Source: an uncultured Gammaproteobacteria bacterium (GTDB lineage Bacteria > Patescibacteriota > Microgenomatia > Levybacterales > UBA12049). Taken from it: a DNA stretch of 64,000 bases. Each line of letters opens with the position of its first letter. The stretch's first letter is position 1. The stretch is from assembly GCA_964515545.1 (NCBI GenBank), contig CAZERI010000002.1, positions 149,731 to 213,730 on the forward strand, read 5' to 3'. The translations under genes were made by a program, and so were the position numbers. The notes under the pieces were generated by a model. It was not told the DNA's origin. It saw only the letters and a program-made list of their open reading frames with translations, and did not search any database. Positions 1,921-63,160 of this stretch are shown here, piece after piece.

Positions 1921-2295
1921 ATCAGAATTATGTATTGAACAAGGATTAAAAGCAACAGCTTTAACTAAATTATAAAAATAGTAATAATCCTAAGGATAAG
2001 GCTATAGTATTGATAAGCTGCTGAGGATCTAAGATACTGAATGTATAACTGTTGTGAACATTAAAGAACTACTCGCTTTAAAGAGATTTTCTTTTGGTCA
2101 TTTACTTCTTCTATTTTCTTTTGCTCTTACTCCAATTCTTTTATTTAGTAATAAGGTCGGTAGTGCTGAACTCAGTGCAGCATGGGCATTTATTTATCTT
2201 TCAGTGGCTATAGTTGAATCTGTATTACCTCTTCATAAGAGGAAATAATTTAGAAGTAATTATTAAATTAACTCCTAAGATGCTACAATTAGCTC

Positions 2296-3228
2296 ATGCT
2301 AAGTATAGTTGTCCCTGTCTATAACGAAGAGGAGAGCCTGCCTCATTTTTATGAGGAGCTGGTCAGAGTCCTCAAAGCACTTAACAAAGACTATGAAATA
2401 GTCTTTGTTGATGATGGCTCCAGAGATAAATCCTTCTCAATACTTCAGGAACTCGAAGCGAAAAATAAGCATATCAGAGTATTCTCATTCAGACGCAATT
2501 TAGGTAAAGCAGATGCTCTCTCTCTTGGCTTTCTTAAAGCAAAAGGAGATATAGTCATCACTCTTGATGCGGATCTCCAAGATCAGCCTTCAGAAATTCC
2601 TAACTTTTTGGCAAAACACAAGGAGGGTTATGATGTCGTCTGCGGTTGGCGTAAGAATCGTAAGGACGCTTCTAAAATGAAGATGATCTCTCGCCTCTTT
2701 AACTATACACTTAATAAGGCTTTTGATCTCATGGTCCATGACTATAACTGCGGTATGAAGCTTTATACTGCAAGTGCTGCGAAAAGTCTTCACCTCTATG
2801 GCGGTCTTCATCGATTTATCCCTATTCTAGTCTATGAACAGGGATACTCTGTAACAGAGATGGTGGTCCACCACGAACCGCGCAAGTTCGGCAAGTCTAA
2901 GTACGGATTTTCAAAAATCTTTAAAGATCTTCCTGACATGTTTACGATGTTATTCCTTGTGAAATACATGAAGCAGCCTCTGCATTTTTTTGGGGGAGTC
3001 GGAGGAGTACTCTCTGCAATAGGGATGCTAATCCTTTTTTATCTCACAATCCTTCATTTCTTGGGTGAGTCTATTGGAAGACGGCCTCTTCTGATCTTTG
3101 GAGTTTTACTAGTGGTAACAGGCTTACAGGTATTCTTTACAGGCTTCCTAGCAGAGCTTCTTATCAATCTTTCACAGCGCGGGGAAAGACATAGCTATCC
3201 TCTGAAATACGTGTCTAGTGATAACTAA
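2296..3228 (+). CDS. GT2 polyprenyl-phosphate sugar synthase (DPM1/Ppm1/GtrB/ArnC family) with two C-terminal TM helices
   Basis: VVPVYNEEESL, VFVDDGSRD and DADLQDQP (DXD) motifs. About 230-aa GT-A domain followed by two hydrophobic helices, which is the typical dolichol/undecaprenyl-phosphate glycosyltransferase architecture. Confidence 0.85.
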   Translation: MLSIVVPVYNEEESLPHFYEELVRVLKALNKDYEIVFVDDGSRDKSFSILQELEAKNKHIRVFSFRRNLGKADALSLGFLKAKGDIVITLDADLQDQPSEIPNFLAKHKEGYDVVCGWRKNRKDASKMKMISRLFNYTLNKAFDLMVHDYNCGMKLYTASAAKSLHLYGGLHRFIPILVYEQGYSVTEMVVHHEPRKFGKSKYGFSKIFKDLPDMFTMLFLVKYMKQPLHFFGGVGGVLSAIGMLILFYLTILHFLGESIGRRPLLIFGVLLVVTGLQVFFTGFLAELLINLSQRGERHSYPLKYVSSDN

Positions 3229-3252
3229 CGCTTCAGAATTGACAGACTGCTT

Positions 3253-3822
3253 TTGCTCATGCATGCTAAATGTAATAAGTCTATGCGAATAGGAATAGAT
3301 ATTTCTCAATTAACATACAGCAATACAGGTGTAGCCAACTATTTAACGCATCTTGTGAAGGAACTTACAGTGGCTGATTCTTCAAATGAATATGTCCTTT
3401 TCTATTCTTCCTTACGAGGAAAAATAGATGAAAGCTTTGTCAAAGATCTTACTAAATCTCATGTGACTATTAAGAGCTTTAAATTTCCTCCAATTTTCCT
3501 TGATCTTCTATGGAATAAACTGCATATTTTACCAATTGAAGCACTTATCGGAGAGGTAGATTTATTTATCACCTCAGATTGGGTTGAACCACCTGCCAGA
3601 AGTGCGAAAAAAGCTACTATTCTTTACGACCTTATCGTCTATAAATATCCTCATGAATCAACTGCAAAAATCGTTGAGACTCAGAAAAGGAAGCTGAAAT
3701 GGGTTAAAAAAGAGACCCAGGCAGTCTTTTGTATCTCAAAAGCGACTATGAAAGATGCAATTGAAATCCTTAAAATTCCTCAAGAAAAACTTCACGTTAT
3801 TTATCCTGGTTTTACCATGTAA
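3253..3822 (+). CDS. truncated GT4 glycosyltransferase (N-terminal Rossmann domain only, ends at the V-Y-P-G hinge); possible pseudogene or split GT
   Basis: MRIGIDISQL...ANYLTHL N-terminal GT4 signature. The ORF stops right after HVIYPGF, where the C-terminal catalytic domain should begin. A full GT4 starts 2 nt downstream. Confidence 0.45.
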   Translation: MLMHAKCNKSMRIGIDISQLTYSNTGVANYLTHLVKELTVADSSNEYVLFYSSLRGKIDESFVKDLTKSHVTIKSFKFPPIFLDLLWNKLHILPIEALIGEVDLFITSDWVEPPARSAKKATILYDLIVYKYPHESTAKIVETQKRKLKWVKKETQAVFCISKATMKDAIEILKIPQEKLHVIYPGFTM

Positions 3823-3823
3823 T

Positions 3824-4954
3824 ATGATTATCGGAATTGATGCCAATGAAGCAAACGTAGAAAAAAAAGTAGGAATCAGTGAGTATGTCTACCAGTTACT
3901 GCTGCAGTTTCACGCAGCTGCATCAGATAATAAAAAGTTTGTTATTTACCTCAAAGATAAGCCCCGTGAGGATTTCCCGAAAGAGTCTCCCAATTGGGAG
4001 TACAAAGTAGTGGGTCCTCATAAAATGTGGACTCAGATGGGGCTTCCTCTTAATTTATTCCTTACCAAAGTTAAGCCAGATGTCTTTTTCTCTCCTGGCC
4101 ACTATGCACCTCGCTTCTCTCCTATCCCGACAGTTATATCTATTATGGATTTAGCTTTTTTTCATTTTCCGGAGTATTTTACCCAGAAAGATCTAGCCCA
4201 GCTTAAAAGTTGGACTAACTACTCAGTTAAGAAGGCTAAGGCTGTCATTACCATCAGCGATTCTACTAAAAATGATATAATTAAGCTGTACGGTGTCCCT
4301 GATAAAAAAATACATGTCGTTTATTTGGGGATTAAAAATGCGCTGACTCTCACACCGCACATCTATCCTATGCAGGAGTTGCAGACTAAATACGGAATAA
4401 GCAAAGACTTTATCCTTTTTGTGGGTACACTACAGCCACGAAAAAATATCCAGAGACTCATCCAGGCTTTTGCAGAGCTTCTCAAGCAAAAAAAATATCA
4501 GGATTCACCTCATCAGCTGGTCATCGTAGGTAAAAAAGGCTGGCAGTATGATGAGATCTTGGCTGCTCCAAAGAAGCTTGGTATTGAGGATAGAGTGAAG
4601 TTTCTGGATTTTGTCCCCGATGAGGAGTTAGTGATGCTGTATAAGAATGCACTTTGCTTTGCATGGCCAAGCCTGTATGAAGGGTTTGGTCTTCCAATTC
4701 TTGAAGCGATGAAGCTGGGATGTCCGGTAATTACCAGTAACGTCAGCAGTATGCCAGAAGCAGGAGGAGATGCTAGTCTCTATGTCGATCCCGAGGATAC
4801 TGAGGACATCGCAGAGAAACTTGATAAGGTACTATCTGATCCTAAGCTTCGTTCAGAAATGATCGAAAAAGGTAAAAAGCAGGTCCAGAAATTTAGCTGG
4901 GAGAAGACAGCTAAAGAGACCTTGGCTGTTTTAGAAGAGGTAGCGAGAGTTTAG
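3824..4954 (+). CDS. GT4 (group 1) glycosyltransferase
   Basis: MIIGIDANEAN N-terminus. C-terminal domain has the E-x7-E-like region (FAWPSLYEGFGLPILEAMKLGCPVITSN). The ORF-track start at 3755 is an out-of-context N-terminal extension, and ATG 3824 immediately follows the stop of the upstream ORF. Confidence 0.85.
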   Translation: MIIGIDANEANVEKKVGISEYVYQLLLQFHAAASDNKKFVIYLKDKPREDFPKESPNWEYKVVGPHKMWTQMGLPLNLFLTKVKPDVFFSPGHYAPRFSPIPTVISIMDLAFFHFPEYFTQKDLAQLKSWTNYSVKKAKAVITISDSTKNDIIKLYGVPDKKIHVVYLGIKNALTLTPHIYPMQELQTKYGISKDFILFVGTLQPRKNIQRLIQAFAELLKQKKYQDSPHQLVIVGKKGWQYDEILAAPKKLGIEDRVKFLDFVPDEELVMLYKNALCFAWPSLYEGFGLPILEAMKLGCPVITSNVSSMPEAGGDASLYVDPEDTEDIAEKLDKVLSDPKLRSEMIEKGKKQVQKFSWEKTAKETLAVLEEVARV

Positions 4955-4966
4955 TTCTTAGATGAT

Positions 4967-5017
4967 AGGTCTTAGGTCTTAGGTCTTAGGTCTTAGGTCT
5001 TAGGTCTTAGGTCTTAG
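4967..5017. repeat. perfect heptanucleotide microsatellite (AGGTCTT)x7 plus a partial unit, intergenic
   Basis: Read directly: seven uninterrupted AGGTCTT copies at 4967-5015. They lie between the GT4 stop (4954) and the acetyltransferase start (5047). Confidence 0.95.
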
Positions 5018-5046
5018 TTTATATCTTAAGAAAAATACAAACACAT

Positions 5047-5601
5047 ATGATTCGGAAAGTAATTAATCGAATAAATACAGTTGCTAATGAGTATGTGCTT
5101 TTTTGGCTTCATTTAGTGGGAAGTATTCCTTCCCATCACCTCCGCCGGTTTTTTTATCGTCTTTCAGGGATGAAGATTGGGAGAGGTTCAACGATCCACA
5201 CTGGGGCTAAGTTCTATCAGCCACTTGGTATACGAATTGGTAAAGATTCCATCATTGGTGAAGGAGTAGTACTGGATGGGCGAGGAACACTTGAGATTGG
5301 TGATCATGTAGATATTGCTTCAGAAGTGATGATTTACAACTCTGAGCATGATATCCATGATCCAAACTTCGGTCCTATCACCCAAGCTGTGAAAGTTGAA
5401 GACTATGTCTTTATCGGCCCACGGGCGATTATTTTGCCTGGGGTGGTGATTGGGAAAGGAGCAGTCGTCGGAGCCGGAGCGGTAGTTACTAAAGACGTCA
5501 AGCCATTTATGGTGGTTGGCGGAGTTCCAGCTAAAGAGATAGGAGAGCGGAGAGACCAGAATCCTTCTTATAAGTTGGGGAGGGCTGCATGGTTTCGTTA
5601 G
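5047..5601 (+). CDS. hexapeptide-repeat (left-handed beta-helix) sugar O-acetyltransferase, WbbJ/LacA/MAT-like
   Basis: Repeated [LIV]-G-x-x-x-x hexapeptides (IGKDSIIGEGVVLDG..., IGPRAIILPGVVIGKGAVVGAGAVV). Size about 184 aa. Confidence 0.85.
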   Translation: MIRKVINRINTVANEYVLFWLHLVGSIPSHHLRRFFYRLSGMKIGRGSTIHTGAKFYQPLGIRIGKDSIIGEGVVLDGRGTLEIGDHVDIASEVMIYNSEHDIHDPNFGPITQAVKVEDYVFIGPRAIILPGVVIGKGAVVGAGAVVTKDVKPFMVVGGVPAKEIGERRDQNPSYKLGRAAWFR

Positions 5602-6440
5602 TTATCCTCTCTTATAATAAACGAGAATTAACCTCAAGCTGCCTTACTAGTATTTATAAGCATATTCCTGAGAAAGAATGTGAAGTAATTGTTGTCGATA
5701 ATGCCTCAAGTGATGACAGTGTAGAGTATATTAAAAAGCATTTTCCTCAAGTAAAACTCATAGAAAATTCAAAAAACGCAGGTTTTGCAGGAGGATGTAA
5801 TCTAGGAGCAAAACGTGCTTTGGGAGAGTATGTCTTATTTCTTAACAATGATGCGGAAGTCGCCAGTGATCCGCTTCCTCAGATGATTGAGGTCTTTGGA
5901 AAACATCCTGATACGGGAATTGTGGGAGGACTTTTGGTAAATCATAATGGCAGTCTCCAGCGTTCATTTGGATCATTTTATACAGTTGTGAACGTCGCTT
6001 ACCTTCTTTTTGCAGGTGAGAGCGGAGAATTAAAAAGATTCCACAGTAATGATGTTACCCCAACTGATTGGGTGAGTGGTGGTTTTATGATGGTAAAGAG
6101 AAGTATTTTTGAGAAGGTAAAAGGATTTAATGAATCGTATTTTATGTATATTGAGGATATGGATCTTTGCTACAGAGTTAAGAAGGAGGGTTATGAAATC
6201 TATAACACACCTTTTGCCCGAGTGAGACACCTAGGCCAGGGAAGCACTAATAAGGCATTTGCGATAGTACATATTTTTGAGGGACTTCAAATTTTCTATA
6301 AACAGCAAAGAAGTGCTTTCGAATATTACGCAGTTAAGCTATTATTATTTATTAAGGCAGTCTCTGCTTTACTTATTGGTGTGGTGACGATGAATAAATA
6401 TCTTGTCACGACATATAGAGATGCGCTTAAGACATTATGA
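5589..6440 (+). CDS. GT2 family glycosyltransferase (rhamnosyl/galactofuranosyl-transferase-like, soluble)
   Basis: LVILSYNKRELT, VIVVDNASSDDS and FLNNDAEV (DXD-like) motifs of GT-A family 2. Confidence 0.85.
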   Translation: MVSLVILSYNKRELTSSCLTSIYKHIPEKECEVIVVDNASSDDSVEYIKKHFPQVKLIENSKNAGFAGGCNLGAKRALGEYVLFLNNDAEVASDPLPQMIEVFGKHPDTGIVGGLLVNHNGSLQRSFGSFYTVVNVAYLLFAGESGELKRFHSNDVTPTDWVSGGFMMVKRSIFEKVKGFNESYFMYIEDMDLCYRVKKEGYEIYNTPFARVRHLGQGSTNKAFAIVHIFEGLQIFYKQQRSAFEYYAVKLLLFIKAVSALLIGVVTMNKYLVTTYRDALKTL

Positions 6441-9400
6441 GATTGTTACGCTGGATTAAAGCTAATCCATTATTACTTATTACCCTTTTTCTTTTTGCAT
6501 TTATCCCTCTTTATCCAAAATTGCCACTTCTGGATATCAAAAATACGTGGGTATATATAAGGGTTGAAGATTTCCTTGTAGCTTTTGCCTGGTTAGTATT
6601 TTTTATTGCGTTTATTCGCAAAAAAGCGACTCTTAAAACGCCATTATCTATCCCTATCCTTATCTTTTGGATCGTCGGAGCAATTGCTACAGTTTATGGT
6701 GTACTGTTTATCTTCCCAAAGCTTGCCAATGTCTATCCCAATTTAGCTTTTCTTAATTATCTCCGCCGTATTGAATATCTTTCTGTTTTCTTCCTTGCTT
6801 ATTCATCAATAAAGAAAAAAGAGGCGATTACTCCTATTATGATTACTCTTTTTGTTACCATGCTTGCAATTTTCTTGTATGGAATAGGACAAAGGATGTT
6901 TGGATTTCCTGCCTTTCAGACGATGAATGAAGAATTTGCAAAAGGAATTCCACTTAGGCTTTCGGCGCTCTCCAGAATTCCATCTACCTTTGCGGGGCAT
7001 TATGATTTAGCTGCTTATTTAATCCTCCTTATTCCAGTTCTAGGAAGTATGATCTTTGGCTATAAAAAGTGGATTGTGAAGATCCTCTTTTTTCTTCTTA
7101 CGACCGCGAGCCTCGTCCTTCTCCTGATGACTGCCTCGCGTGTGTCATTTGCAGTGTATATGGTTTCAATTGCTCTCATGCTTATCTTCCAAAAACAGAA
7201 GAAGTTCATTATTCCTGTCTTTATCTTAAGTATTCTCCTCTTAAAATCCTTTACAGGAATTTCTCAGCGTTTTGCTGCTACATTTACTCAAGTAGATCTC
7301 GTTGTTGACTCGCGAACCGGTAAGGCTATAGGAGTTGCATCAGAATATGGAAATGGAAATATCGTTATTTCTGACGAGTTATCAAATGGGGAGAATTTAC
7401 CGACAGGCTCCCGCTATATTAATCTGGCAGGAGGAGGACAAGGACAGGACTCAAATATTACTTACAAAAGACTTGTCCCAGGGTCTGGCCAGCAGGAAAT
7501 CATAACCAAGGCAGGTAAGGTAATCGTCAAGAAAGCCTTTGCTTATGACGTCTCATTTACTACGCGTTTTCAAGGCGAATGGCCAAATGCTATCAAGGCT
7601 TTTGAGAGAAATCCACTCCTCGGGAGCGGATATTCATCCATTACGCTTGCTACAGACAACAGCTTTCTCCGCATGCTGGGTGAGACCGGACTCTTAGGCT
7701 TTTTCTCCTTTATCAGTATTTTTGTCTTTGTGGGAATTTATCTCATACGGCTGGTCCCTGAGATTGACGATAGGCGTATTAAAAGTCTTATTTGGGGCGT
7801 ACTAGCAGGAAATATAGGACTTGCGCTTAATGGGACACTTATTGATGTCTATGAAGCATCAAAGGTGGCTTTTGTTCTATGGATTTTACTTGGCGTAACA
7901 CTTGGTCTAGCACATCTTTACCAAAAGAAAAAGATTGATTATCTCTTAGATCTTCGTAAGATTTTTACCTCAACACCAGCATTTATTGTAGGGATAGTCG
8001 TTGTTGGTTTTTTGGTTTTTGCAGGATCATTCTCAAATTACTTTACCGCTGATGATTTTACCTGGCTTCGCTGGGCAGCTGATTGTAAGCAAATTATTGA
8101 GCAGACAGGTCTCCAACAGTGCGGTTCTCTTATCTCAACGATTACTCATTACTTCACTAACTCTCAAGGATTTTTCTATCGTCCTGGTACCAAAGCGTAT
8201 TTCTTGATAGCGTATCCTATTTTTGAATTATTTCCGTCTCCTTTCCATGTGGTTTCATTCATGCTCCATTTGACAGCAACAATTCTTATATTCTTCATTT
8301 CTAAAAAACTCCTCAAGAGTCAGATCTATGGCTTTTTAGTCGCAATTTTCTTCCTCTTTTTAAGTGTGCATGCAGAAGCACTTTATTGGATTTCAGTTAC
8401 TGGGCACTTAGTGACTGCAGTCTTGATACTTTTTGCATTTCTCTGCTTTATCTACTTTAGGGAGACAAAAAAGAAAATCCTCTTCGCTCTTGCATGGGTA
8501 GCAGTATTTATCTCTATGTTTTTCCATGAATATGGTACGACAGGTCCGCTCCTTCTTATAGCTTATGATTTAATTGATGATTGGAAGATGGCGGTTAAGA
8601 AACCATTTGCTAAATGGTATTATCTTTTGCTCCTCCTTCCTATCGGTTTATATTATTTTCTTCGTGTCATCTCTCAGAGTGTGTGGTTCCAGGGAGACTA
8701 TAGTTACAATATCGCGAAGCTGCCGTTTAATGTCATAGGTAATACACTTGGCTATGTGAGTGCATCCGTCGTGGGACCGGTTATCCTGCCTTTCTTTACG
8801 ACTCTGAGAACTTCGGCAGCACACAATCTCCCCCTCACTGCAGTTGCTGTATTAGTAGGAATAGCAGTTGTTGGAGGAGGAGTATGGCATGTGAGAAGAT
8901 CATTCAAGAAAGACAGTAGTAAAATGCTTTTATTATCAGGAGCCTTATTTATCATTCCGTTACTTCCATTTTTAGGGCTTGGCAATATCAGTCCTCGGTA
9001 TGCATATCTCTCTTCATTTGGAGTTGTTTTTTTCATTGGGTATATTCTTCAGCAGTTCACAAAAGAAGAGAAAAAATATAAAGTTACTTTTGCCTTAGTT
9101 GCTTTAATTAGTGTTGTTTTTGTTTCACTCCACTTTAGTCAGCTAAATAAGATAAATAAAGACTGGAATAAGGCAGGTGCTATAGTCAATAACACGCTTG
9201 TTGGTATCAATTTGGCCTATGCTCAACCAGGAAGTCTCCCTCGCAATCCTATTTTCTATTTTGTAAATATACCTATTAAATATGGCGATGCATGGGTGTT
9301 CCCGCTTGGTCCGCAGGATGCTCTATGGTTCTCATTCCAGGATGTTCCTCTTCAGACAATATTAACGAACTCTGAAAAAGGAGCAGAGGATTTAGCTGAC

Positions 9401-9535
9401 AAACATCCAAACGTAAGTGTATTCATGTATGACAAGGAGGGAAGTATCGGACAGTACACACCTCCTCTAACACCTACCCCAACTCCAGGATATAAGGTAA
9501 AGACAGTAGTTAGTCCTACTCCGTATGTTAAATAA
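6437..9535 (+). CDS. fusion protein: N-terminal O-antigen ligase/polymerase (Wzy_C) domain plus C-terminal GT-C-like polytopic domain, with a Pro/Thr-rich C-terminal tail
   Basis: Wzy_C signature NPLLGSGYSSITLATDNSFLRMLGETGLLGF in a 12+ TM N-terminal half. C-terminal half (from about aa 530) has a DDFTWLRWAAD loop and a hydrophobic core resembling the DWHSWRQAD loop of the next ORF. Ends with PPLTPTPTPGYK. Confidence 0.7.
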   Translation: MRLLRWIKANPLLLITLFLFAFIPLYPKLPLLDIKNTWVYIRVEDFLVAFAWLVFFIAFIRKKATLKTPLSIPILIFWIVGAIATVYGVLFIFPKLANVYPNLAFLNYLRRIEYLSVFFLAYSSIKKKEAITPIMITLFVTMLAIFLYGIGQRMFGFPAFQTMNEEFAKGIPLRLSALSRIPSTFAGHYDLAAYLILLIPVLGSMIFGYKKWIVKILFFLLTTASLVLLLMTASRVSFAVYMVSIALMLIFQKQKKFIIPVFILSILLLKSFTGISQRFAATFTQVDLVVDSRTGKAIGVASEYGNGNIVISDELSNGENLPTGSRYINLAGGGQGQDSNITYKRLVPGSGQQEIITKAGKVIVKKAFAYDVSFTTRFQGEWPNAIKAFERNPLLGSGYSSITLATDNSFLRMLGETGLLGFFSFISIFVFVGIYLIRLVPEIDDRRIKSLIWGVLAGNIGLALNGTLIDVYEASKVAFVLWILLGVTLGLAHLYQKKKIDYLLDLRKIFTSTPAFIVGIVVVGFLVFAGSFSNYFTADDFTWLRWAADCKQIIEQTGLQQCGSLISTITHYFTNSQGFFYRPGTKAYFLIAYPIFELFPSPFHVVSFMLHLTATILIFFISKKLLKSQIYGFLVAIFFLFLSVHAEALYWISVTGHLVTAVLILFAFLCFIYFRETKKKILFALAWVAVFISMFFHEYGTTGPLLLIAYDLIDDWKMAVKKPFAKWYYLLLLLPIGLYYFLRVISQSVWFQGDYSYNIAKLPFNVIGNTLGYVSASVVGPVILPFFTTLRTSAAHNLPLTAVAVLVGIAVVGGGVWHVRRSFKKDSSKMLLLSGALFIIPLLPFLGLGNISPRYAYLSSFGVVFFIGYILQQFTKEEKKYKVTFALVALISVVFVSLHFSQLNKINKDWNKAGAIVNNTLVGINLAYAQPGSLPRNPIFYFVNIPIKYGDAWVFPLGPQDALWFSFQDVPLQTILTNSEKGAEDLADKHPNVSVFMYDKEGSIGQYTPPLTPTPTPGYKVKTVVSPTPYVK

Positions 9536-10964
9536 ATCATTAGCGACTAAAGTACTCATAGTTATCCTAGCGGTCGGGTTCCTTGTAAGACTTTATCGAT
9601 TTGATAATCCTATCGCTGATTGGCACAGCTGGCGTCAGGCAGACACCTCGTCAGTCTCCAGAAATTTTGTTACTTCAGGATTTGATGTACTACATCCTCG
9701 CTTTGATGATTTATCAAATGTCCCTTCCGGCCTTGATAACCCGCAAGGCTATCGCTTTGTTGAATTTCCTATTTATAATATTCTCCAAGCTGGATTTTTT
9801 AAGTTTATTGGGATACTGACTTTAGAAGAGTGGGGAAGACTCATTAGTATTTTTGCTTCTCTATTCGGGAGTTTTGTGATATTCCAGCTTCTCAATAAGT
9901 ATTCGGGAGTAAAAGCAGGGTTAGCAGGAGCTTTTTTCTATACATTTTTGCCGTATAACATTTATTATTCACGTACTATTCTGCCTGATCCTGCTATGGC
10001 AGGAGCAGTAATAGGAGCAGTCTATTTTTTTAGTAAGTGGGCAGATAGCCATGGTAAGGATACTAGGAGTTTTGTACTATCTCTTCTTCTTCTCATGTTA
10101 GCTATTCTCCTTAAGCCGTATGCTCTTTTCTATGGATTGCCATTTTTGGTACTTGTCTATCAGGAATTTGGGATGAAAGTACTAAAGAATGTGAAAATAT
10201 GGATATATGTGATAGCTTCCATTATCCCTTTTATCCTTTGGCGACTTTGGATGCAGCAATTCCCCGAAGGAATCCCTGCTAATGCATGGCTTCTTAACGG
10301 CAATGGTATTAGATTTAGGCCATCATTTTTTCAATGGATTGGGTATGAGCGGATAACTAAGCTAATCTCAGGGTATGTGGGGATACTCCTCCTAGGAGTA
10401 GGAGGAATACAGCTTATCAAAGAAAAGCGAAGACTTTTTTATCTTTCATTGGTTGTAAGCGCTTTGGCATATCTTTGTGTATTCGCGACAGGGAATGTGC
10501 AGCATGATTACTATCAAATAGTAATTATGCCTGTGGTAGCAATATTATTTGGCCTTGGGGCAAAATGGTTCCTTGAGCCTAAGTCCCATAAGGCATTAGC
10601 TTTTAAGCCGATTATTCTGGGAGTCATCACCTTGGTGGCTTTCAGTCTGAGTTGGTATCAGGTGAAAGATTACTTTAATATTAATAATAGAGCCATTGTT
10701 ATAGCCGGGAATGCAGTAGACCAGAAGATCCCTGAAGATGCCAAAGTAATTGCTAATTACAATGGAGATACTTCTTTTCTGTATCAGACAAAGAGAAAAG
10801 GCTGGTCAAGCTTTGAGAAACCGCTTCCTGAGATGATCTCAATGGGTGCTGATTATTTAGTCTTAGCCAATCCTTCGACTCAAGATCTCTACTTTGCTAA
10901 AGACTATAAAATTATTGCACAGACTAAAGACTATTTGCTCTTTGATCTTCACCAGAAACCATGA
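9525..10964 (+). CDS. GT-C-fold membrane glycosyltransferase (GT39/GT83, ArnT/PMT-like)
   Basis: N-terminal TM, then a periplasmic loop DWHSWRQADTSS with an acidic motif, followed by more than 10 TM helices. Paralogous to the C-terminal half of ORF 6437..9535. Confidence 0.6.
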   Translation: MLNKSLATKVLIVILAVGFLVRLYRFDNPIADWHSWRQADTSSVSRNFVTSGFDVLHPRFDDLSNVPSGLDNPQGYRFVEFPIYNILQAGFFKFIGILTLEEWGRLISIFASLFGSFVIFQLLNKYSGVKAGLAGAFFYTFLPYNIYYSRTILPDPAMAGAVIGAVYFFSKWADSHGKDTRSFVLSLLLLMLAILLKPYALFYGLPFLVLVYQEFGMKVLKNVKIWIYVIASIIPFILWRLWMQQFPEGIPANAWLLNGNGIRFRPSFFQWIGYERITKLISGYVGILLLGVGGIQLIKEKRRLFYLSLVVSALAYLCVFATGNVQHDYYQIVIMPVVAILFGLGAKWFLEPKSHKALAFKPIILGVITLVAFSLSWYQVKDYFNINNRAIVIAGNAVDQKIPEDAKVIANYNGDTSFLYQTKRKGWSSFEKPLPEMISMGADYLVLANPSTQDLYFAKDYKIIAQTKDYLLFDLHQKP

Positions 10965-12151
10965 AAATTTTAATGATTTCATCATACCTTCCTTACCCTC
11001 TCTTTGATGGGGGGACCATCCGTCTCTTTAATTTGATAAAACAGCTCAGTACTAAGCATGAGATTACGCTTATTTGTGAAGTAAGACCGCATCAAAATAG
11101 AGACGATAGTAAGGAGGTTGAGAAAATTACAGAAAAGGTGATCACTATCCCTCGTAAAAAACAATGGAGTGCACAGAATATCCTTAAGGCGGGTTTTTCT
11201 AGTGATTCGTTTTTGATCGTCGGCCATACACTCCCTGAGATGAAGAAAGTAATTGACAATGAACTAAGGACAAAGACCTACGACCTTATCCACGTCGAGA
11301 CTTCATACGTCATGCAGAATCTACCTCCGACAACACTCCCTGTAGTTCTTGTTGAGCATAACATTGAATATCTGGTTTATACAAAATTTATGGATAAAGC
11401 GCCTTTGCCTCTCCGTCCTTTTCTAAAGATTGATATAGCAAAACTGAGAAAGCAAGAAGAGGCTTTTTGGCGGAAAGCTTCTCAGGTAGTAACTGTGTCT
11501 GATGGAGAAAAGAAGATTGTCGAAAAAACAGGAATTAAAGCAAAGACTGTCTATAATGGTGTTGATTTATCAAACTTTCCTTTTAAAGATGTGGTTAAGT
11601 CATTGGAAGGCGACAAAAAACAATTCTTATTTATAGGCAACTATAAATGGCTCCAAAATCGCGACTCTGCCAGATGGATCTTACAGGAAATCTGGCCAAA
11701 AATAAAAGAAAAAGCAGTGGGGGAAGTTGTGCTTCGTATTGTTGGGCGGGATATGCCTGAGGATATAAGAAATTGGAAAGATGAGTCAGTCATCATCGAA
11801 GAGAATTCAGGTCGTAAGACTCAAGAAATCTTTGCAGAAAGCTTTGCCCTCCTGGCACCGATCAGAATTGGAGGAGGCAGCCAGTATAAGATTTTAGAAG
11901 CCTTAGCAGTCGGGACTCCAGTTATCACGACCACTCTTGGCTTGTCAGGACTTGATGTAAAAAAGGATGCGGATCTCCTGGTCGCAGATAATGCGTCTGA
12001 TCTTTCGGAAAAGGCTCTAGCTCTTCTTAGTGATGAAAAACTCTATAAGCATCTTGCAACAAGTGGAAGGAAGCAAATTGAGGAAAAGTATGATTGGGGA
12101 AAGATCGCAATAACTCTCCAGGAAATATACCAGGAGGCTGTTAACGTATGA
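10961..12151 (+). CDS. GT4 (group 1) glycosyltransferase
   Basis: MKILMISSYLPYPLFDGGTIR N-terminal GT4 motif. C-terminal GGSQYKILEALAVGTPVITT. Start/stop overlaps its neighbours (ATGA coupling). Confidence 0.85.
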   Translation: MKILMISSYLPYPLFDGGTIRLFNLIKQLSTKHEITLICEVRPHQNRDDSKEVEKITEKVITIPRKKQWSAQNILKAGFSSDSFLIVGHTLPEMKKVIDNELRTKTYDLIHVETSYVMQNLPPTTLPVVLVEHNIEYLVYTKFMDKAPLPLRPFLKIDIAKLRKQEEAFWRKASQVVTVSDGEKKIVEKTGIKAKTVYNGVDLSNFPFKDVVKSLEGDKKQFLFIGNYKWLQNRDSARWILQEIWPKIKEKAVGEVVLRIVGRDMPEDIRNWKDESVIIEENSGRKTQEIFAESFALLAPIRIGGGSQYKILEALAVGTPVITTTLGLSGLDVKKDADLLVADNASDLSEKALALLSDEKLYKHLATSGRKQIEEKYDWGKIAITLQEIYQEAVNV

Positions 12152-13251
12152 GGATTGGCATTGATGCACGATTTTGGCATGAAACAGGTGTTGGGCGATA
12201 CATTCGTAATCTTGTTCTAGAGCTCGACAAATTAAATTCCGAACATGAATTTGTCCTTTTTGTAAAAGAACAAGATGAAAATAAGATACGCAGTGCTGTC
12301 ATGAATAAAAATTTTAAGATTGTACCAACTGCTATTCATTGGCATTCTGTTAAGGAACAGCTTTTATTTTCACGGATTTTACAAAAAGAGAGGATGGATT
12401 TGATGCATTTTACGTATTTCTCAGTGCCTATTTTATACTCAGGCCCATTTGTAGTGACAATTCATGATTTAATCATCCATCATTTTGCCACTGGTGAAGC
12501 AACAACTCTGCCTTTTCCTCTCTATAAAGTCAAAGTTGAGGCATATAAGCATGTTATTTCAACAGCAGCAAGAAAGGCGGTAAAGATTATTGCAGTATCT
12601 GAAGCAACCAAGAAAGAGGTTGTAGATCATTTAGGAGTACCTGAAAATAAAATTACCGTTACCTACGAAGGCGTAGACCTTTCTCTATCTAAGCCAAAAG
12701 ACCGAGGATCTAAGAATGATTATGGCAAGTACTTCCTCCATGTCGGCAATGTCTATCCTCATAAAAATGCTAAGCGGTTAGTAGACGCCTTTGAATTTAT
12801 TCATGAGGAGGATGTCAAACTTCTATTTATTGGTAAAAAAGATTATTTTATGACTAAATTGGAGAATTATGTTAAGAAGAAAAATATTTTAAATGTAGAA
12901 TTTTTAGGATTTGTTAAAGATGATGAGCTAGAAGAGTTATACCAAAATGCTCTTGCTACTGTTGTTCCTTCTTTGATGGAAGGATTTGGTCTGCCTGTCC
13001 TTGAGGCACTTGCAAATAAATCACTTGTAATTGCTTCAGATATTCCATCTTTGAGAGAGGTAGGAAAAGAGGCCCTCTTGTATATTGATCCTTTAAATAT
13101 TACCTCGCTTTCTGCTAAGATGCAGCACATTGTCAAGGATGATCCGAAAAATTTTGAAAGTTATAAGATAAGAGGACTCGAGATAGTAAAGCATTTTAGC
13201 TGGAAAGATATGACTGAGGCGACAATACGAATATACGAAAGCTGCCTTTAG
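12148..13251 (+). CDS. GT4 (group 1) glycosyltransferase
   Basis: MRIGIDARFWHETGVGRY and EGFGLPVLEALANKSLVIASD motifs. Confidence 0.85.
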   Translation: MRIGIDARFWHETGVGRYIRNLVLELDKLNSEHEFVLFVKEQDENKIRSAVMNKNFKIVPTAIHWHSVKEQLLFSRILQKERMDLMHFTYFSVPILYSGPFVVTIHDLIIHHFATGEATTLPFPLYKVKVEAYKHVISTAARKAVKIIAVSEATKKEVVDHLGVPENKITVTYEGVDLSLSKPKDRGSKNDYGKYFLHVGNVYPHKNAKRLVDAFEFIHEEDVKLLFIGKKDYFMTKLENYVKKKNILNVEFLGFVKDDELEELYQNALATVVPSLMEGFGLPVLEALANKSLVIASDIPSLREVGKEALLYIDPLNITSLSAKMQHIVKDDPKNFESYKIRGLEIVKHFSWKDMTEATIRIYESCL

Positions 13252-13312
13252 TCCCGTTTAAGGACAACGTGATCCGACTAACTATACACTGCTCCTAACG
13301 TCTCTTTGATCT

Positions 13313-14413
13313 ATGAAAGTAGCGCTTGTTTATGATCGTGTAAATAAATGGGGTGGAGCAGAACGCGTCCTCATAGCTCTTCATGAGTTATTCCCAGATG
13401 CAGATTTGTATACCTCAGTCTACAGCAAAAAAAAAGCCAAGTGGGCAAAGAATTTTTCAGTTATTCCTTCTTTTTTGCAGGACTTCCCCTTTGCCAAAGA
13501 TGCTCATGAGTTCTATCCTCTGTTAATGCCGATCTCTTTTGAGTCATTTCATTTTGATGACTATGATGTAGTGATTTCAGTTACCAGCGAAGCTGGAAAG
13601 GGGATAATCACCAAGCCCCATACTCTTCATATCTGTTATTGTCTGACTCCGACCCGTTACTTGTGGAGTGGTTTTGATGAGTACTTTCCGACCCCTTTAG
13701 CACGGATTCTCTCCTATCCGGCTATTTCTTATCTAAGAATGTGGGATAAAGTAGCGAGTTCCCGACCTGACAGATTTATCGCCATATCAAAAGAAGTAAG
13801 CTCACGAATAAAAACCTTTTACCATCGAGATACTCAGATTATCCACCCGCCTGTTGCTCTTATTGAGGCTGATTTTTCTAAAAATACAAGAAAGAAAAAA
13901 GGAGAGTATTACTTAGTGGTATCAAGGCTCGTGCATTATAAGAGAATTGATCTAGCAATTTTGGCTTGCAATAAGCTTAACCTTCCGCTTAAAATCGTAG
14001 GAACAGGCAGCGAGATAGAGAAATTAAAAAGAATTTCAGGGCCTACTATTGAATTTCTCGGATTTGTTCCTGATGAAGAGTTAGTCCCCCTCTATAAAGA
14101 TGCAAAAGCTTTGCTTTTTCCAGGGAGTGAGGATTTTGGGATAGTCATGGCTGAAGCATTAGGCTTTGGGACACCTGTTATCGCTTATAGGAATGGGGGA
14201 GCTATGGATATCGTTGAAAACGGTAAGTCAGGAATCCTTTTCCCGCATCAGACTGTCGCCTCGTTAGTAAAGGCTATAAAAATGGCTGAGACCAAAAAAT
14301 TTAGAACATTAGATCTCAAAAAACGAGCTCAATATTTTTCTTCAACACATTTTAAGCAAAAGATAAAAGCCTATATTGACGAGTCTTTGCAAAAGAAAGA
14401 AATATGTCTATAA
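13313..14413 (+). CDS. GT4 (group 1) glycosyltransferase
   Basis: MKVALVYDRVNKWGGAERV N-terminus and EDFGIVMAEALGFGTPVIAYRNGG C-terminal motif. Confidence 0.85.
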   Translation: MKVALVYDRVNKWGGAERVLIALHELFPDADLYTSVYSKKKAKWAKNFSVIPSFLQDFPFAKDAHEFYPLLMPISFESFHFDDYDVVISVTSEAGKGIITKPHTLHICYCLTPTRYLWSGFDEYFPTPLARILSYPAISYLRMWDKVASSRPDRFIAISKEVSSRIKTFYHRDTQIIHPPVALIEADFSKNTRKKKGEYYLVVSRLVHYKRIDLAILACNKLNLPLKIVGTGSEIEKLKRISGPTIEFLGFVPDEELVPLYKDAKALLFPGSEDFGIVMAEALGFGTPVIAYRNGGAMDIVENGKSGILFPHQTVASLVKAIKMAETKKFRTLDLKKRAQYFSSTHFKQKIKAYIDESLQKKEICL

Positions 14414-14425
14414 TAAGGTGAATCT

Positions 14426-15508
14426 ATGAAAATAGTTATTTTTGCAGGCGGAGTTGGTACACGGCTTTGGCCTCTATCGCGCAAGAATACTCCTAAGCAG
14501 TTTGGACAGATCATAGGAGATAGGTCTACCCTTCAGCAGACAATAGATCGTTTATCAACAGAATTTCCTCCTGATGATATTTTTATAGCCACGGGTAAAC
14601 AGTATAAACAAAATGTAGAATCCCAGCTCTCAATGGTTCCTAGGGAAAACTTTATTTTTGAACCGATGATGCGGGATGTAGGACCAGCTATCGGCCTAAA
14701 TGCTTTTTTACTGGAGAAATTGGCTCCCGATGAACCTATTGCGATTTTGTGGAGTGATCATCTTGTTAAGAATGTCTCGATGTTTCGCCATGTGCTGCGG
14801 ATAGCTGAGAAAATGATTCTGGAAGACAATGCTAACTTTGTTTTTATTGCTCAAGAGCCACGATTTGCCAACCAAAATCTCGGCTGGATAGAGTTGGGAG
14901 AAAAAGTAAAGAATGATAATGGAGCTGAAGTTTACCATTTTGCTAAGTTGCGTTATCGTCCTGCACTAGAAGAAGCTGAGCAGTTTTTCCAGCAGGACAA
15001 CTTTGTCTGGAATTTAGGCTACTTCGTTACCACACCCCGCTTCCTGGTGTCCTTATTTAAGGAAAATTCCCCTGAGATGTATGAAAAGCTACGAGAGATC
15101 CAGTCAGCATATCAGACAGCTGAGTATGAACAAAAGCTTGAAGAAATTTATCCAACTCTCGAGAAGATAAGCTTTGATGATGCAGTGCTGGTAAAAATGT
15201 CACCTCAGGATGTCTATGTGATATCTACTGATCTGGGCTGGAGTGATATAGGAGCATGGGATGCTCTGAAAGAAGCATTAGCTAATACTTCAGATGAAAA
15301 TATTACCAAGGGTAAAGTTCTGGTAGAGGATACACGTGATTCGTTGGTCTTTAACTATACCGATCAATTAAGTGTAGGGATAGACCTTTCGGAGATGCTT
15401 ATTATTAATACAGAAGATGTGCTTCTCGTCTGTCCTAAGAGCTCAGTACCAAAAATTAAAAAGCTGGTTGAGAACCTTAAAGACACTCCTCATGAGCATC
15501 TAGCCTAG
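14426..15508 (+). CDS. manC: mannose-1-phosphate guanylyltransferase (GDP-mannose pyrophosphorylase), short form without cupin/PMI domain
   Basis: MKIVIFAGGVGTRLWPLSRKNTPKQF matches the ManC/CpsB nucleotidyltransferase N-terminus. About 360 aa. Confidence 0.8.
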   Translation: MKIVIFAGGVGTRLWPLSRKNTPKQFGQIIGDRSTLQQTIDRLSTEFPPDDIFIATGKQYKQNVESQLSMVPRENFIFEPMMRDVGPAIGLNAFLLEKLAPDEPIAILWSDHLVKNVSMFRHVLRIAEKMILEDNANFVFIAQEPRFANQNLGWIELGEKVKNDNGAEVYHFAKLRYRPALEEAEQFFQQDNFVWNLGYFVTTPRFLVSLFKENSPEMYEKLREIQSAYQTAEYEQKLEEIYPTLEKISFDDAVLVKMSPQDVYVISTDLGWSDIGAWDALKEALANTSDENITKGKVLVEDTRDSLVFNYTDQLSVGIDLSEMLIINTEDVLLVCPKSSVPKIKKLVENLKDTPHEHLA

Positions 15509-15510
15509 CC

Positions 15511-16176
15511 ATGCCATACGTTGAAATTAAAAAAAGCAGAGCATATGAAATGGCCAAACGTGCTATTGATATCATAAGCTCTCTTTCTATTCTTTTGATC
15601 TTTTTTCCTGTTATTCTTCTTGTGGCTCTTGCGATTCGGTTGGATTCAAAAGGTCCCATCCTTGCTGATACTCCTGAGAGGGTGGGAAGGGGAGGAAAAC
15701 CCTTTAAGATGTATAAATTCCGTTCTATGATTCCCAATGCCCATATTATCCTGCGTGAGGATCCTGAATTTGCAGCTTTGTATGAACAATATAAAAAAGG
15801 CAGCTACAAACTGACAAATGATCCCCGTATAACGAGAGTTGGGACATTTATAAGGAAGCATTCGCTGGATGAAGCTCCGCAGTTGTTTAATGTCTTAAAA
15901 GGAGACATGAGTCTGGTTGGCCCTCGGGCGTATTACCCTGATGAGCTTCGCGAGCAGCAAAAAAAATATCCTGAGACAAAGGATGCAGTAAAAGTAGTGC
16001 TGTCTGTTAAGCCTGGGGTAACTGGCTTATGGCAGGTCTCAGGGAGAAGTGAGATTAATTTTGATAAAAGAATAGAAATGGATGCAAATTATGTAAAACG
16101 ACGATCTATTTTGTATGATATATGGCTTATTCTCCGCACGCCAGGAGCTGTCATAACCGGCCGAGGAGCACGATAG
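15511..16176 (+). CDS. bacterial sugar transferase (priming phosphoglycosyltransferase, WbaP/WecA-functional-analogue, Bac_transf family)
   Basis: One N-terminal TM, then KMYKFRSM, DEAPQLFNVLKGDMSLVGPR and PGVTGLWQVSGR. These are classic polyisoprenyl-phosphate hexose-1-phosphate transferase motifs. Confidence 0.85.
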   Translation: MPYVEIKKSRAYEMAKRAIDIISSLSILLIFFPVILLVALAIRLDSKGPILADTPERVGRGGKPFKMYKFRSMIPNAHIILREDPEFAALYEQYKKGSYKLTNDPRITRVGTFIRKHSLDEAPQLFNVLKGDMSLVGPRAYYPDELREQQKKYPETKDAVKVVLSVKPGVTGLWQVSGRSEINFDKRIEMDANYVKRRSILYDIWLILRTPGAVITGRGAR

Positions 16177-16221
16177 TGATTTTATACAAGTTGACAATGA
16201 AGAAAGCTCTTTCGTATCATA

Positions 16222-24759: not shown

Positions 24760-24816
24760 GGAGTTGATGCTACTTAAGAGCAATCAATATAATAATTATT
24801 ATTAATGACTGAATGC

Positions 24817-24840
24817 AACCCGCCATGGCGGGTTTTTTTA
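24817..24840 (+). terminator. intrinsic-terminator-like hairpin in the 5' leader of the purF-purN gene (candidate attenuator)
   Basis: AACCCGC-CATG-GCGGGTT stem-loop followed by TTTTTTT, about 50 nt downstream of the predicted TSS and about 38 nt upstream of RBS GAAAGGA/ATG 24879. No upstream + strand gene for it to terminate. Confidence 0.5.
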
Positions 24841-24878
24841 TGGAAAGACTAGTAGTAGTTGGGAATGAAGATGAAAGG

Positions 24879-37931: not shown

Positions 37932-39005
37932 ATGAAGCGAGTCGATCTTGTCCTACTGTGTACTACTCTTTTTCTAACGGTTTTTGGCCTCTTTATGATC
38001 TACGATGCTTCATCTGTTATTGCCTTTCGTGATTTTGCTGATAAGTACCATTACATCAAGGAGCAGTGTATTAATGCTCTTATCGGACTGAGTGCATTAA
38101 TTTTTTTGAGTTATTTTGATTATAAGAAGCTTTATAATTTTTCCATTCTTATTCTTATTGCAGCGATTGGAATGCTTGTAGGTGTATTTTTGCCTGGAGT
38201 TGGTATCTATGCATTAGGAGCGCATAGGTGGATTAATTTAGGTATTACAGTCTTGCAGCCTGCGGAGTTCGTCAAGCTAAGTCTAGCCATCTATCTGGCT
38301 GCGTGGTTTTCAACGAAAGAAAATGGCAGACTGTTAGCATTTGGATTACTGATGGGTTTTGTGCTGCTTCTTATCATGGCTCAGCCAGATATGGGTACTG
38401 CATCTATCATTCTGTTTGAGGCTGTTGTTCTTTATTTTTTATCAGGAGCAAGTATTATGCAGTTTTTGGTGATGATTCCGGTTATTGGTGTCGGTGGATT
38501 TCTCTTAGTTTTACTGGCTCCTTATAGACTTGCCCGTTTGACATCTTTTCTGAGCGTAGGAAGTGATATCAATAATGCCTCTTATCATGTTAAACAAATT
38601 CTTATCGCTCTTGGATCAGGCGGATTACTGGGTGTAGGAGCTGGAAACTCCTTACAAAAATTTGCGTATCTGCCTGAAAACGTTACTGATTCAATTTTTG
38701 CTATTATTGCAGAAGAGTTCGGTTTTTTGGGATCAGTTGCTCTTATGGCTCTCTTTGTAGTAGTTATGTGGCGGGGATTTATCATCTCCTCAAGAGCCAA
38801 AGATAATTTTGGCAGGCTTTTGGCAGCGGGTATAATTTGTTTTTTGGGAGTTCAGGCGGTCATTAACCTATCAGCTATGACTGCTCTTATTCCATTAACA
38901 GGCGTACCTCTTCCTTTTATTTCTTACGGCGGATCAGCTTTAATTGTAGATATGGGAGCGGTAGGGATCTTACTTAACATTTCAAAACAAGGAAAAAATT
39001 CATGA
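37932..39005 (+). CDS. ftsW: SEDS-family peptidoglycan glycosyltransferase FtsW
   Basis: LIMAQPDMGTASIIL and PLTGVPLPFISYGGSALI. dcw position between mraY and murG. Confidence 0.85.
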   Translation: MKRVDLVLLCTTLFLTVFGLFMIYDASSVIAFRDFADKYHYIKEQCINALIGLSALIFLSYFDYKKLYNFSILILIAAIGMLVGVFLPGVGIYALGAHRWINLGITVLQPAEFVKLSLAIYLAAWFSTKENGRLLAFGLLMGFVLLLIMAQPDMGTASIILFEAVVLYFLSGASIMQFLVMIPVIGVGGFLLVLLAPYRLARLTSFLSVGSDINNASYHVKQILIALGSGGLLGVGAGNSLQKFAYLPENVTDSIFAIIAEEFGFLGSVALMALFVVVMWRGFIISSRAKDNFGRLLAAGIICFLGVQAVINLSAMTALIPLTGVPLPFISYGGSALIVDMGAVGILLNISKQGKNS

Positions 39006-60308: not shown

Positions 60309-60329
60309 ATTCGTAGTAAAATAGCGTTT

Positions 60330-63081: not shown

Positions 63082-63160
63082 ATTATTGATTATAAGTTAT
63101 TGTATAGGTCTTTAAAAGGTATTGCTTTTATACCTTACAGTAACTATTATTGGTATATTA

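Follow-up and report, generated by a model that had tools for sequence, protein, structure and literature searches.

A phylum-conserved operon of Candidatus Levybacteria that probably builds and decorates a cell-envelope glycan

In the multi-component transmembrane glycosylation systems CsbB/YfhO, GtlA/GtlB and GacI/GacL of monoderm bacteria and GtrA/B/C of phages and enterobacteria, a membrane-anchored glycosyltransferase (GT) of family GT2, which makes a polyprenyl-phosphate sugar, is partnered by an outer-face enzyme of the GT-C fold. Pairs of a PMT_2-type GT-C enzyme and a GtrB/CsbB-type GT2 decorate wall polymers, and the secondary cell-wall polysaccharide (SCWP) of Bacillus anthracis joins such a system with a Wzx/Wzy route. 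In characterized monoderm systems, GT-C genes that lie inside a polymer locus decorate that polymer. Here we examine an operon that likewise encodes a membrane-anchored GT2 and GT-C enzymes and that, as in the group A carbohydrate (GAC) cluster, has its GT-C genes inside a glycan biosynthesis locus. It occupies positions 2296-16176 of a 64,000-nucleotide stretch of contig CAZERI010000002.1 (the window, to which all positions refer), from a putative member of the candidate phyla radiation (CPR). CPR bacteria are uncultivated, ultra-small and host-dependent, and their envelope chemistry is scarcely known. A reading of the bare sequence (the original prediction) had taken the cluster for a possible protein O-mannosylation or lipoglycan system, with a Ppm1/DPM1-type synthase, PMT-type GT-C enzymes and Pro/Thr (PT)-rich targets. 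We find that the operon is phylum-conserved in Candidatus Levybacteria (CPR, Microgenomates) and probably assembles a single, defined glycan of the cell envelope on a polyprenyl carrier, decorated on the outside by GT-C enzymes; the product is most likely an SCWP or a lipoglycan-like polymer, rather than singly mannosylated proteins.

The open reading frames (ORFs) of the array, and most other window ORFs of at least 100 aa, were compared with Pfam, and families were named from Pfam and NCBIfam. For conservation, one genome per species was scanned; relatives of the GT-C protein were found in 490 species genomes, synteny was counted in the best 80 loci, and per-gene counts cover eligible loci only, that is, those on a contig long enough to reach the position of the gene. 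The genes, with any transmembrane (TM) helices that define their class, are:

2296-3228, plus strand: putative polyprenyl-phosphate sugar synthase, ArnC/GtrB class; GT2 (GT-A) domain with two C-terminal TM helices; 37/45 eligible loci
3253-3822, plus strand: N-terminal (acceptor-side) domain of a GT4 enzyme, alone; Glyco_transf_4, 4e-08, residues 26-186; 50/50 loci
3824-4954, plus strand: GT4 (GT-B), cytoplasmic glycosyltransferase; Glycos_transf_1, 3.8e-42; 52/52 loci
5047-5601, plus strand: WcaF-like hexapeptide-repeat acetyltransferase; Hexapep, 4e-16; NCBIfam WcaF, 1.1e-30, under cutoff; 54/54 loci
5589-6440, plus strand: GT2 of the repeat-unit-extending type; Glycos_transf_2, 5.9e-27; 46/55 loci
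6437-7936, plus strand: N-terminal half of a 1032-aa fusion, WaaL/Wzy_C-type ligase or polymerase domain (predicted); Wzy_C, 35.5 bits; 58/58 loci
7937-9535, plus strand: C-terminal half of the fusion, GT-C-fold module of ~520 aa with multiple TM helices; recognized by Foldseek
9525-10964, plus strand: 479-aa GT-C-fold glycosyltransferase; PMT_2, 35.7 bits (cutoff 26.1)
10961-12151, plus strand: GT4; Glyco_trans_1_4, 3.3e-18; 67/70 loci
12148-13251, plus strand: GT4; Glycos_transf_1, 1e-28; 66/67 loci
13313-14413, plus strand: GT4; Glycos_transf_1, 2.3e-28; 63/63 loci
14426-15508, plus strand: mannose-1-phosphate guanylyltransferase (GDP-mannose pyrophosphorylase, ManC); NTP_transferase and ManC beta-helix; 59/60 loci
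15511-16176, plus strand: small monotopic priming phosphoglycosyltransferase; Bac_transf, 2.7e-60; 59/59 loci, ~71% identity
16222-18171, plus strand: DUF4012 protein; DUF4012, 1.8e-22; 53/56 loci

The array up to the priming enzyme is an unbroken ~14-kb run on the plus strand, with spacings of -13 to +92 nt (54, 1, 92, -13, -4, -11, -4, -4, 61, 12 and 2 nt, in order) and start/stop overlaps of 4-13 nt at four junctions; given the negative spacings, the central genes (the second GT2, the fusion, the 479-aa GT-C and two GT4 genes) are joined by overlapping start and stop codons. Every ORF named in the original prediction is present, and its single-strand glycan operon and gene inventory were confirmed by Pfam and NCBIfam: the hexapeptide acetyltransferase, the Wzy_C domain and the priming phosphoglycosyltransferase were each recovered by their Pfam families, while the five predicted GT4-type ORFs comprise four full enzymes and one N-terminal domain. 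The DUF4012 gene lies beyond the span that had been predicted, and is followed by recO, a class-II aminoacyl-tRNA synthetase gene and the dcw cluster (mraZ, mraW, PBP, Mur ligases, MraY, FtsW, MurG, FtsA and FtsZ). A scan for promoters and terminators that might mark the limits of the transcription unit gave counts not above those of shuffled controls; among the promoter-like sites, a near-consensus sigma-70-like one (TTGACA, 18-nt spacer, TATCAT; 11/12 matches) lies at 16191-16220 (plus strand), upstream of the DUF4012 gene.

Array genes were found in identical order and on the same strand in 82-100% of eligible loci, and independent gene calls on three related contigs gave an equal layout; as 80 related loci repeat this order, the arrangement is not due to chance. 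Median identity across loci was lowest for the C-terminal half of the fusion (36%) and highest for the priming transferase (71%). The best 80 genomes are mostly labelled Candidatus Levybacteria/Levyibacteriota (Patescibacteria, Microgenomates), which bears out the putative CPR origin, and many of the others bear labels that are generic or clearly mistaken, for example ‘uncultured Gammaproteobacteria’. Most related loci (L010, L012, L018, L019 and others) have an extra gene between the first and second GT4 genes downstream of the GT-C gene, ~+2.6 to +3.6 kb from the GT-C start; gene calls identify it as a GT2 in L001 and L005. It is absent from the window and from its nearest relatives (L008, L016, L030 and L059), which implies one sugar fewer in the glycan of this lineage. 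Genes 5' of the GtrB-like GT2 also vary among loci; they often encode multi-TM proteins of ~530 aa with no homologue in the window, and one recurrent upstream family (~530 aa, nine TM helices) resembles another GT-C-like protein.

The 479-aa protein (9525-10964), whose gene shares 11 nt with the fusion gene and 4 nt with the GT4 gene that follows, gave a confident AlphaFold2 model (pLDDT 82.9, pTM 0.85) that retrieved 31 GT-C enzymes from the PDB with Foldseek at E<=1e-3. Together with the model of the fusion, this confirmed the GT-C fold that had been predicted for this protein and for the C-terminal half of 6437-9535; both modules have multiple TM helices and conserve an acidic residue in their first external loop. 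In the family of the 479-aa protein, which has >4,500 homologues (the best 120 at 55-98% identity), the loop directly after TM1 is invariant and reads D32-W-H-x-W-R-Q-x-D40 (D32, W33, H34, W36, R37, Q38 and D40).

The further step, from GT-C fold to protein mannosyltransferase of family GT39 (PMT), did not hold when the family was classified with profile models. PMT_2 was the one glycosyltransferase family in Pfam matched by the 479-aa protein, even at E<=10. Across 37 family members, PMT_2 was matched by 37/37 and PF02366 by 13/37 (best 1.2e-9), but PMT_4TMC (PF16192), which with PF02366 would mark GT39, by 0/37. No PDB chain, including Pmt1, Pmt2 and Pmt4, was matched by phmmer (E<=1) or by a 37-sequence profile (E<=10). 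In Foldseek, STT3 (E 6e-9), ArnT (E 5e-8, query-normalized TM-score 0.65) and ALG12 (TM-scores 0.64/0.64), as well as PglB and DPY19, were placed above Pmt4, which came in at rank 28 (E 1.5e-4); Pmt1/2 reached only E 0.1-0.3. The enzymes AftA, AftB, AftD, Emb and PimE were also retrieved, more weakly than ArnT, STT3 and ALG12. The PMT_2 model also takes in teichoic-acid glycosyltransferases, for example GtlB and GttB, and a match to it therefore means ‘GT-C’ and not ‘protein mannosyltransferase’.

The second GT-C module is the C-terminal half of the 1032-aa fusion (6437-9535). AlphaFold2 modelled the fusion as two halves (pLDDT 78.7). The N-terminal half contains the Wzy_C domain (35.5 bits, cutoff 31.7; residues 224-426), into which a beta-rich external segment is inserted at about residues 283-370, was matched by Foldseek to WaaL (7tpg; TM-score 0.61 on the target), and has invariant R180, H188, R235, R278, R377 and R412; it is predicted to be a polyprenyl-diphosphate-glycan ligase or polymerase domain of the WaaL/Wzy_C type. 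Pfam reported Wzy_C alone for the fusion, and neither PglL_A nor Wzy_C_2; as O-oligosaccharyltransferases are diverse, such an activity would still be compatible with this result. The C-terminal half matched no Pfam family, but was linked by Foldseek to PglB (7.7e-4), STT3 (1.3e-3) and Pmt4 (1.9e-3). A DD pair (D539, D540) that follows its first TM helix is invariant, as are W543, C550 and C562. Searches of the PDB with the fusion, as a single sequence and as a profile, found no sequence match. In a representative library of 1.84 billion proteins the C-terminal module recurred in 86 representative clusters at E<=1e-30, both fused (~1000 aa) and stand-alone (~500-540 aa). We considered recent duplication as the origin of the two GT-C modules of the operon and rejected it (BLASTP E 1.4-8.7).

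The GT2 at 2296-3228 (310 aa; Glycos_transf_2, 2e-34, at residues 3-163; TM helices 235-253 and 265-283) had been predicted to be of the Ppm1/DPM1 type. Its nature as a membrane-anchored enzyme of the polyprenyl-phosphate sugar synthase class stands, but not that assignment within the class. Alignments to ArnC (9hwj, 1.7e-49) and GtrB (sll0501; 5ekp, 3.4e-35) were near full length (residues 2-289/293), whereas the dolichyl-phosphate mannose synthase of Pyrococcus furiosus (5mlz, 1.7e-17) aligned over residues 2-120 only. The GT-A domain, two C-terminal TM helices and full-length homology are those of the GtrB/ArnC/CsbB class. In NCBIfam, ArnC scored best (189 bits, cutoff 529) and PgfS second (151 bits, cutoff 500), with the dolichyl-phosphate hexose transferase model at 43.5 bits (cutoff 375); as no equivalog cutoff was reached, we place the protein in the class and in no named orthologue group. 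On these alignments it is a GtrB/ArnC/CsbB-class polyprenyl-phosphate glycosyltransferase, not demonstrably DPM1/Ppm1-like. The ArnC match, together with the occurrence in the window of a formyltransferase domain and a DegT-family gene, raised the Arn aminoarabinose pathway as a candidate, which was rejected: the ArnA formyltransferase/decarboxylase, ArnB aminotransferase and ArnD deformylase that accompany ArnC and ArnT in it were not recovered, the sole formyltransferase domain of the window comes from the PurN portion of a PurF-PurN fusion, and for the RfbH-like DegT-family gene at the 3' end the RfbH model (251 bits) outscored that of ArnB (97 bits).

Among the remaining array members, ManC (14426-15508) aligned over its full length to the GDP-mannose pyrophosphorylase of Thermotoga maritima (2x5s, 8e-49), and the predicted supply of GDP-mannose was borne out at the level of enzyme class by its NTP_transferase and beta-helix domains. 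It scored 221 bits with TIGR01479 over model positions 3-348 of 467, under the cutoff because the phosphomannose isomerase domain is absent. The priming enzyme (15511-16176) was closer to the catalytic domain of WbaP (5e-50) than to PglC (7e-28). The GT4 half-protein, with its likely start at the ATG at 3283, sits one base 5' of the full GT4 at 3824-4954 and is conserved at ~61% identity. We rejected the idea that it is a frameshifted or pseudogenized GT4, as a gene of 177-189 aa is kept in all 50 eligible loci, with 177-181 aa in the gene calls of related contigs; it may serve as an accessory subunit, comparable to those of split GT-B enzymes like Alg13/14. The DUF4012 protein has an N-terminal membrane anchor (TM 41-59) and a large external domain. 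Its family is enriched in CPR and Gram-positive bacteria and is located in a capsular/exopolysaccharide (CPS/EPS) locus of Bifidobacterium (PMC6744442), an association that fits a role of the operon in surface polysaccharide.

The cluster can be set beside two described kinds of pathway, and departs from both. It shares the GT2 with TM helices and the GT-C component with the multi-component transmembrane glycosylation systems, from which it differs in that the window has no GtrA- or Wzx-type flippase gene, that the operon has two GT-C modules, of which one is joined to a WaaL/Wzy_C domain, that the GT-C family is a clade specific to CPR and unmatched in sequence by any solved GT-C, and that the system is phylum-conserved and not serotype-variable. 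With Wzy-dependent O-antigen, capsule and SCWP pathways it shares a WbaP-related priming phosphoglycosyltransferase and a Wzy_C-type polymerase or ligase domain, both expected of such pathways, as well as GT4 and GT2 enzymes, an acetyltransferase and a gene for nucleotide-sugar supply; it differs in the absence of Wzx, Wzz/polysaccharide co-polymerase (PCP) and LCP genes from the 64 kb and in the fusion of Wzy_C to GT-C. Typical O-antigen and capsule loci are its opposite in one respect, as the gene content and order of this operon hardly change from species to species.

Enzyme classes, folds, conserved catalytic-loop residues and synteny are observed; the sequence of reactions, the acceptor and, apart from ManC being there, any part played by mannose are inferred. 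Most likely, the cluster builds and decorates a mannose-containing cell-surface sugar polymer. ManC would supply GDP-mannose, and the small WbaP-like phosphoglycosyltransferase would prime polyprenyl phosphate. On the cytoplasmic face, four full GT4 enzymes, one GT2 and the GT4 half-protein would extend a polyprenyl-diphosphate oligosaccharide, which the WcaF-like enzyme may acetylate. The lipid-linked glycan would then be exported by a flippase, for which the 64-kb window holds no gene, and polymerized, or ligated to an acceptor, by the WaaL/Wzy_C-like N-terminal domain of the fusion. In parallel, the ArnC/GtrB-like GT2 would make a polyprenyl-phosphate monosaccharide, from which the C-terminal half of the fusion and the 479-aa GT-C would add side-chain or extension sugars to the glycan at the outer face. 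This last step is proposed because of the fold, the invariant loop-1 aspartates and the tight gene coupling. The coupling of the GT-C genes to the Wzy_C fusion and GT4 genes, together with the monoderm precedents, makes the operon's own glycan the most likely GT-C acceptor. Of the two halves of the earlier ‘O-mannosylation / lipoglycan’ label, the lipoglycan or surface-glycan half is thus favoured by operon context, and the protein O-mannosylation half is not.

Several observations weigh against this assignment. With Pfam we detected no Wzx/MOP flippase, ABC exporter, GtrA-type flippase, Wzz/PCP chain-length regulator or LCP ligase in the 64-kb window, nor did a flippase, chain-length regulator or LCP gene occur among the recurrent extra genes of the 80 related loci, although these may sit elsewhere in the genome. 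The conservation of the locus across the phylum at 50-70% identity is unlike the hypervariability of typical O-antigen and capsule loci. No enzyme of the array reached an NCBIfam equivalog cutoff, so that sugars and linkages are not fixed by sequence. Wzy_C domains occur also in protein O-oligosaccharyltransferases, and the same genome encodes a conserved membrane protein with a PT-rich linker (57194-57943, described below). In streptococci, GtrB and GT-C pairs glycosylate Ser/Thr-rich protein regions (PMC12041528). Given a near-invariant locus with no flippase, chain-length regulator or LCP gene, readings in which proteins are the acceptor retain a low probability.

The original prediction had pointed to two PT-rich stretches in the window as targets of PMT-type enzymes. 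Both stretches exist. The first, PPLTPTPTPG, corresponds to residues 1009-1018 of the fusion (nt 9461-9490), within a PT-rich stretch that forms the final 24 residues of the protein. This tail is P/T-rich in 10/118 homologues, all of them close relatives, and is thus lineage-specific; the idea of a conserved auto-glycosylation site was rejected on this count. The second, TPTATPFPPTPTPTLTPTPTPP, is located in a minus-strand ORF (57194-57943) that encodes a membrane-anchored protein of 245-249 aa with no Pfam family, 41 kb from the operon. Most of its 40 homologues, at least one of which is labelled Levybacteria, keep a PT/PTS-rich linker at the equal position, before a small C-terminal domain. 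From this pattern the protein is a candidate O-glycosylation target, with no link to the operon. No strong PT stretch was found in the ORFs of syntenic loci (1160 ORFs, 80 loci, 1.37 Mb), and the case for PT-rich linkers as PMT-type targets of this operon is weak.

A tentative possibility, to which we give a low probability, is that the ~16-kb operon makes a fixed glycan by a two-stage route like that of lipid-linked oligosaccharide (LLO) assembly in eukaryotes and archaea, and that the unique WaaL-like::GT-C fusion moves it en bloc to surface proteins (pilins, S-layer or PT-linker proteins) or to a phylum-specific, essential wall polymer. The likeness to LLO assembly (Alg GT4 enzymes, DPM1 and the GT-C enzymes ALG3/9/12) lies in the cytoplasmic GT4 enzymes, GDP-mannose, an outer GT-C fed by a polyprenyl-phosphate sugar synthase and the superposition on ALG12, which is among the best for the 479-aa protein. 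The operon differs in that its priming enzyme is of the Bac_transf type and not the Alg7/WecA type, in the absence of any STT3, AglB or PglB signature, and in its WaaL/Wzy_C-like module for transfer or polymerization.

We think it unlikely that the acceptor is specifically protein, with the GT4 enzymes and outer GT-C building an LLO that the Wzy_C domain, as an O-oligosaccharyltransferase like PglL/PilO, would transfer en bloc to proteins of the cell surface, for example pilins, S-layer proteins or PT-linker proteins. The Wzy_C domain is common to WaaL, Wzy and PglL/PilO enzymes, and the N-terminal half of the fusion is WaaL-like in the model; a fixed, phylum-wide glycan would suit general glycosylation better than a variable capsule, the window showed no chain-length regulator or LCP ligase gene, ALG12 and ALG9 are good structural superpositions for the 479-aa GT-C, and a conserved PT-linker protein exists. 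However, the PglL-specific domains were not reported for the fusion, none of the 80 loci has an acceptor protein gene in or beside the operon, and the tie of DUF4012 to CPS/EPS loci points to polysaccharide. The streptococcal Pgf and GtrB/PgtC2 systems, whose targets are Ser/Thr-rich extracytoplasmic linkers of membrane proteins (PMC12041528), are alike in combining a GtrB-type synthase with a GT-C, and PgfS is the second NCBIfam match of our GT2. They differ in that they are not set in an operon of phosphoglycosyltransferase, GT4 and Wzy_C genes, in that the PgfS score is 151 against a 500-bit cutoff, and in that here neither tail conservation nor the syntenic ORFs showed a link between the operon and a PT protein.

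A polymer in the style of lipomannan/lipoarabinomannan (LM/LAM) or arabinogalactan, with the GT-C modules acting as processive, elongating polymerases and the cytoplasmic enzymes making a short primer only, is distinctly doubtful. Several distinct GT-C modules per polyprenyl-phosphate sugar synthase, further GT-C-like genes nearby, GT4 and ManC genes reminiscent of PimA/PimB chemistry, and the retrieval of Aft, Emb and PimE enzymes by Foldseek would agree with it; against this, six cytoplasmic GT genes are many for a primer, the LM/LAM pathway includes neither a priming phosphoglycosyltransferase nor a Wzy_C domain, and the Aft, Emb and PimE matches are the weaker ones.

Least of all do we expect actinobacterial or eukaryote-like protein O-mannosylation, in which a Ppm1/DPM1-type enzyme would make polyprenyl-phosphate mannose for a GT39 PMT that places single mannoses on Pro/Thr-rich linkers: ManC within the operon, the class of the GT2, the PMT_2 and occasional PF02366 matches and the positionally conserved PT linker accord with it, and the logic would be alike if the sugar were mannose (GDP-mannose to polyprenyl-phosphate mannose to outer GT-C), but the ‘Ppm1 + PMT’ reading failed at the class of the GT2 (ArnC/GtrB-like), at PMT_4TMC, at sequence similarity to solved Pmt enzymes and at the Pmt fold, the GT-C genes, which lack GT39 hallmarks, are embedded in and translationally coupled to a polyprenyl-diphosphate-glycan assembly operon, and neither the fusion tail nor the syntenic loci provide a conserved PT-rich target.

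Beyond the operon, further genes of the window are glycan-related or resemble GT-C genes, among them:

1-1989, minus strand: YfhO-family (GT-C-fold) membrane protein of >660 aa, running off the left end; 34.6 bits
58779-60308, plus strand: 509-aa multi-TM protein; PMT_2, 20.3 bits, sub-threshold
60330-61337: GT4, truncated-looking, in a second glycan-related locus
61264-63081, minus strand: PTPS_related/GT-C-like membrane protein; 68 bits; ~70 nt overlap with the GT4 at 60330-61337

Three additional GT-C paralogues had been predicted to flank the window. GT-C-like genes are indeed present at 1-1989, 58779-60308 and 61264-63081, but close paralogy did not stand: their mutual similarity is barely detectable, and they are therefore superfamily relatives. 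The YfhO gene is divergent from the operon and lies in a region of 30% GC, against ~40% in the rest of the window; as its position is variable in related genomes, it may be a lineage-specific acquisition. The other genes belong to a second glycan-related locus (58779-64000), at the right end of which an RfbH-like DegT-family gene runs off the window; by its similarity, the enzyme suggests a dideoxy or amino sugar. The window also contains two genes of the FtsW/RodA family (SEDS; 37932-39005 and 52911-53993, both plus strand), one in the dcw cluster and the other directly 3' of a class I aminoacyl-tRNA synthetase gene (50092-52911). Within the dcw/mur cluster lies the PurF-PurN fusion mentioned above (amidophosphoribosyltransferase with glycinamide ribonucleotide formyltransferase; 733 aa, 24813-27014, plus strand), which is unexpected, since CPR bacteria are generally regarded as lacking de novo purine synthesis.

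A literature search on this operon, on GT-C glycosylation in CPR bacteria and on Wzy_C::GT-C fusions found nothing specific. What stands out about the operon is its fixation throughout the phylum in a reduced genome, the fusion of a WaaL-like domain with a GT-C module and two uncharacterized GT-C families; by sequence, neither the families nor the fusion has a characterized or structurally solved relative. The analysis also corrects an over-specific label, as a PMT_2 match does not imply protein O-mannosylation. Should the two-stage, en bloc reading be true, the operon would encode CPR-specific machinery for general glycosylation or for an envelope polymer, and the fusion enzyme at its centre would have no characterized counterpart. 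The locus takes up ~1.5% of a genome of ~1 Mb and adjoins recO and the dcw genes; this share of the genome, the fixed gene order across a candidate phylum and the recO/dcw vicinity make its product a strong candidate for a core envelope glycan of these bacteria, one that could serve in host attachment or protection.

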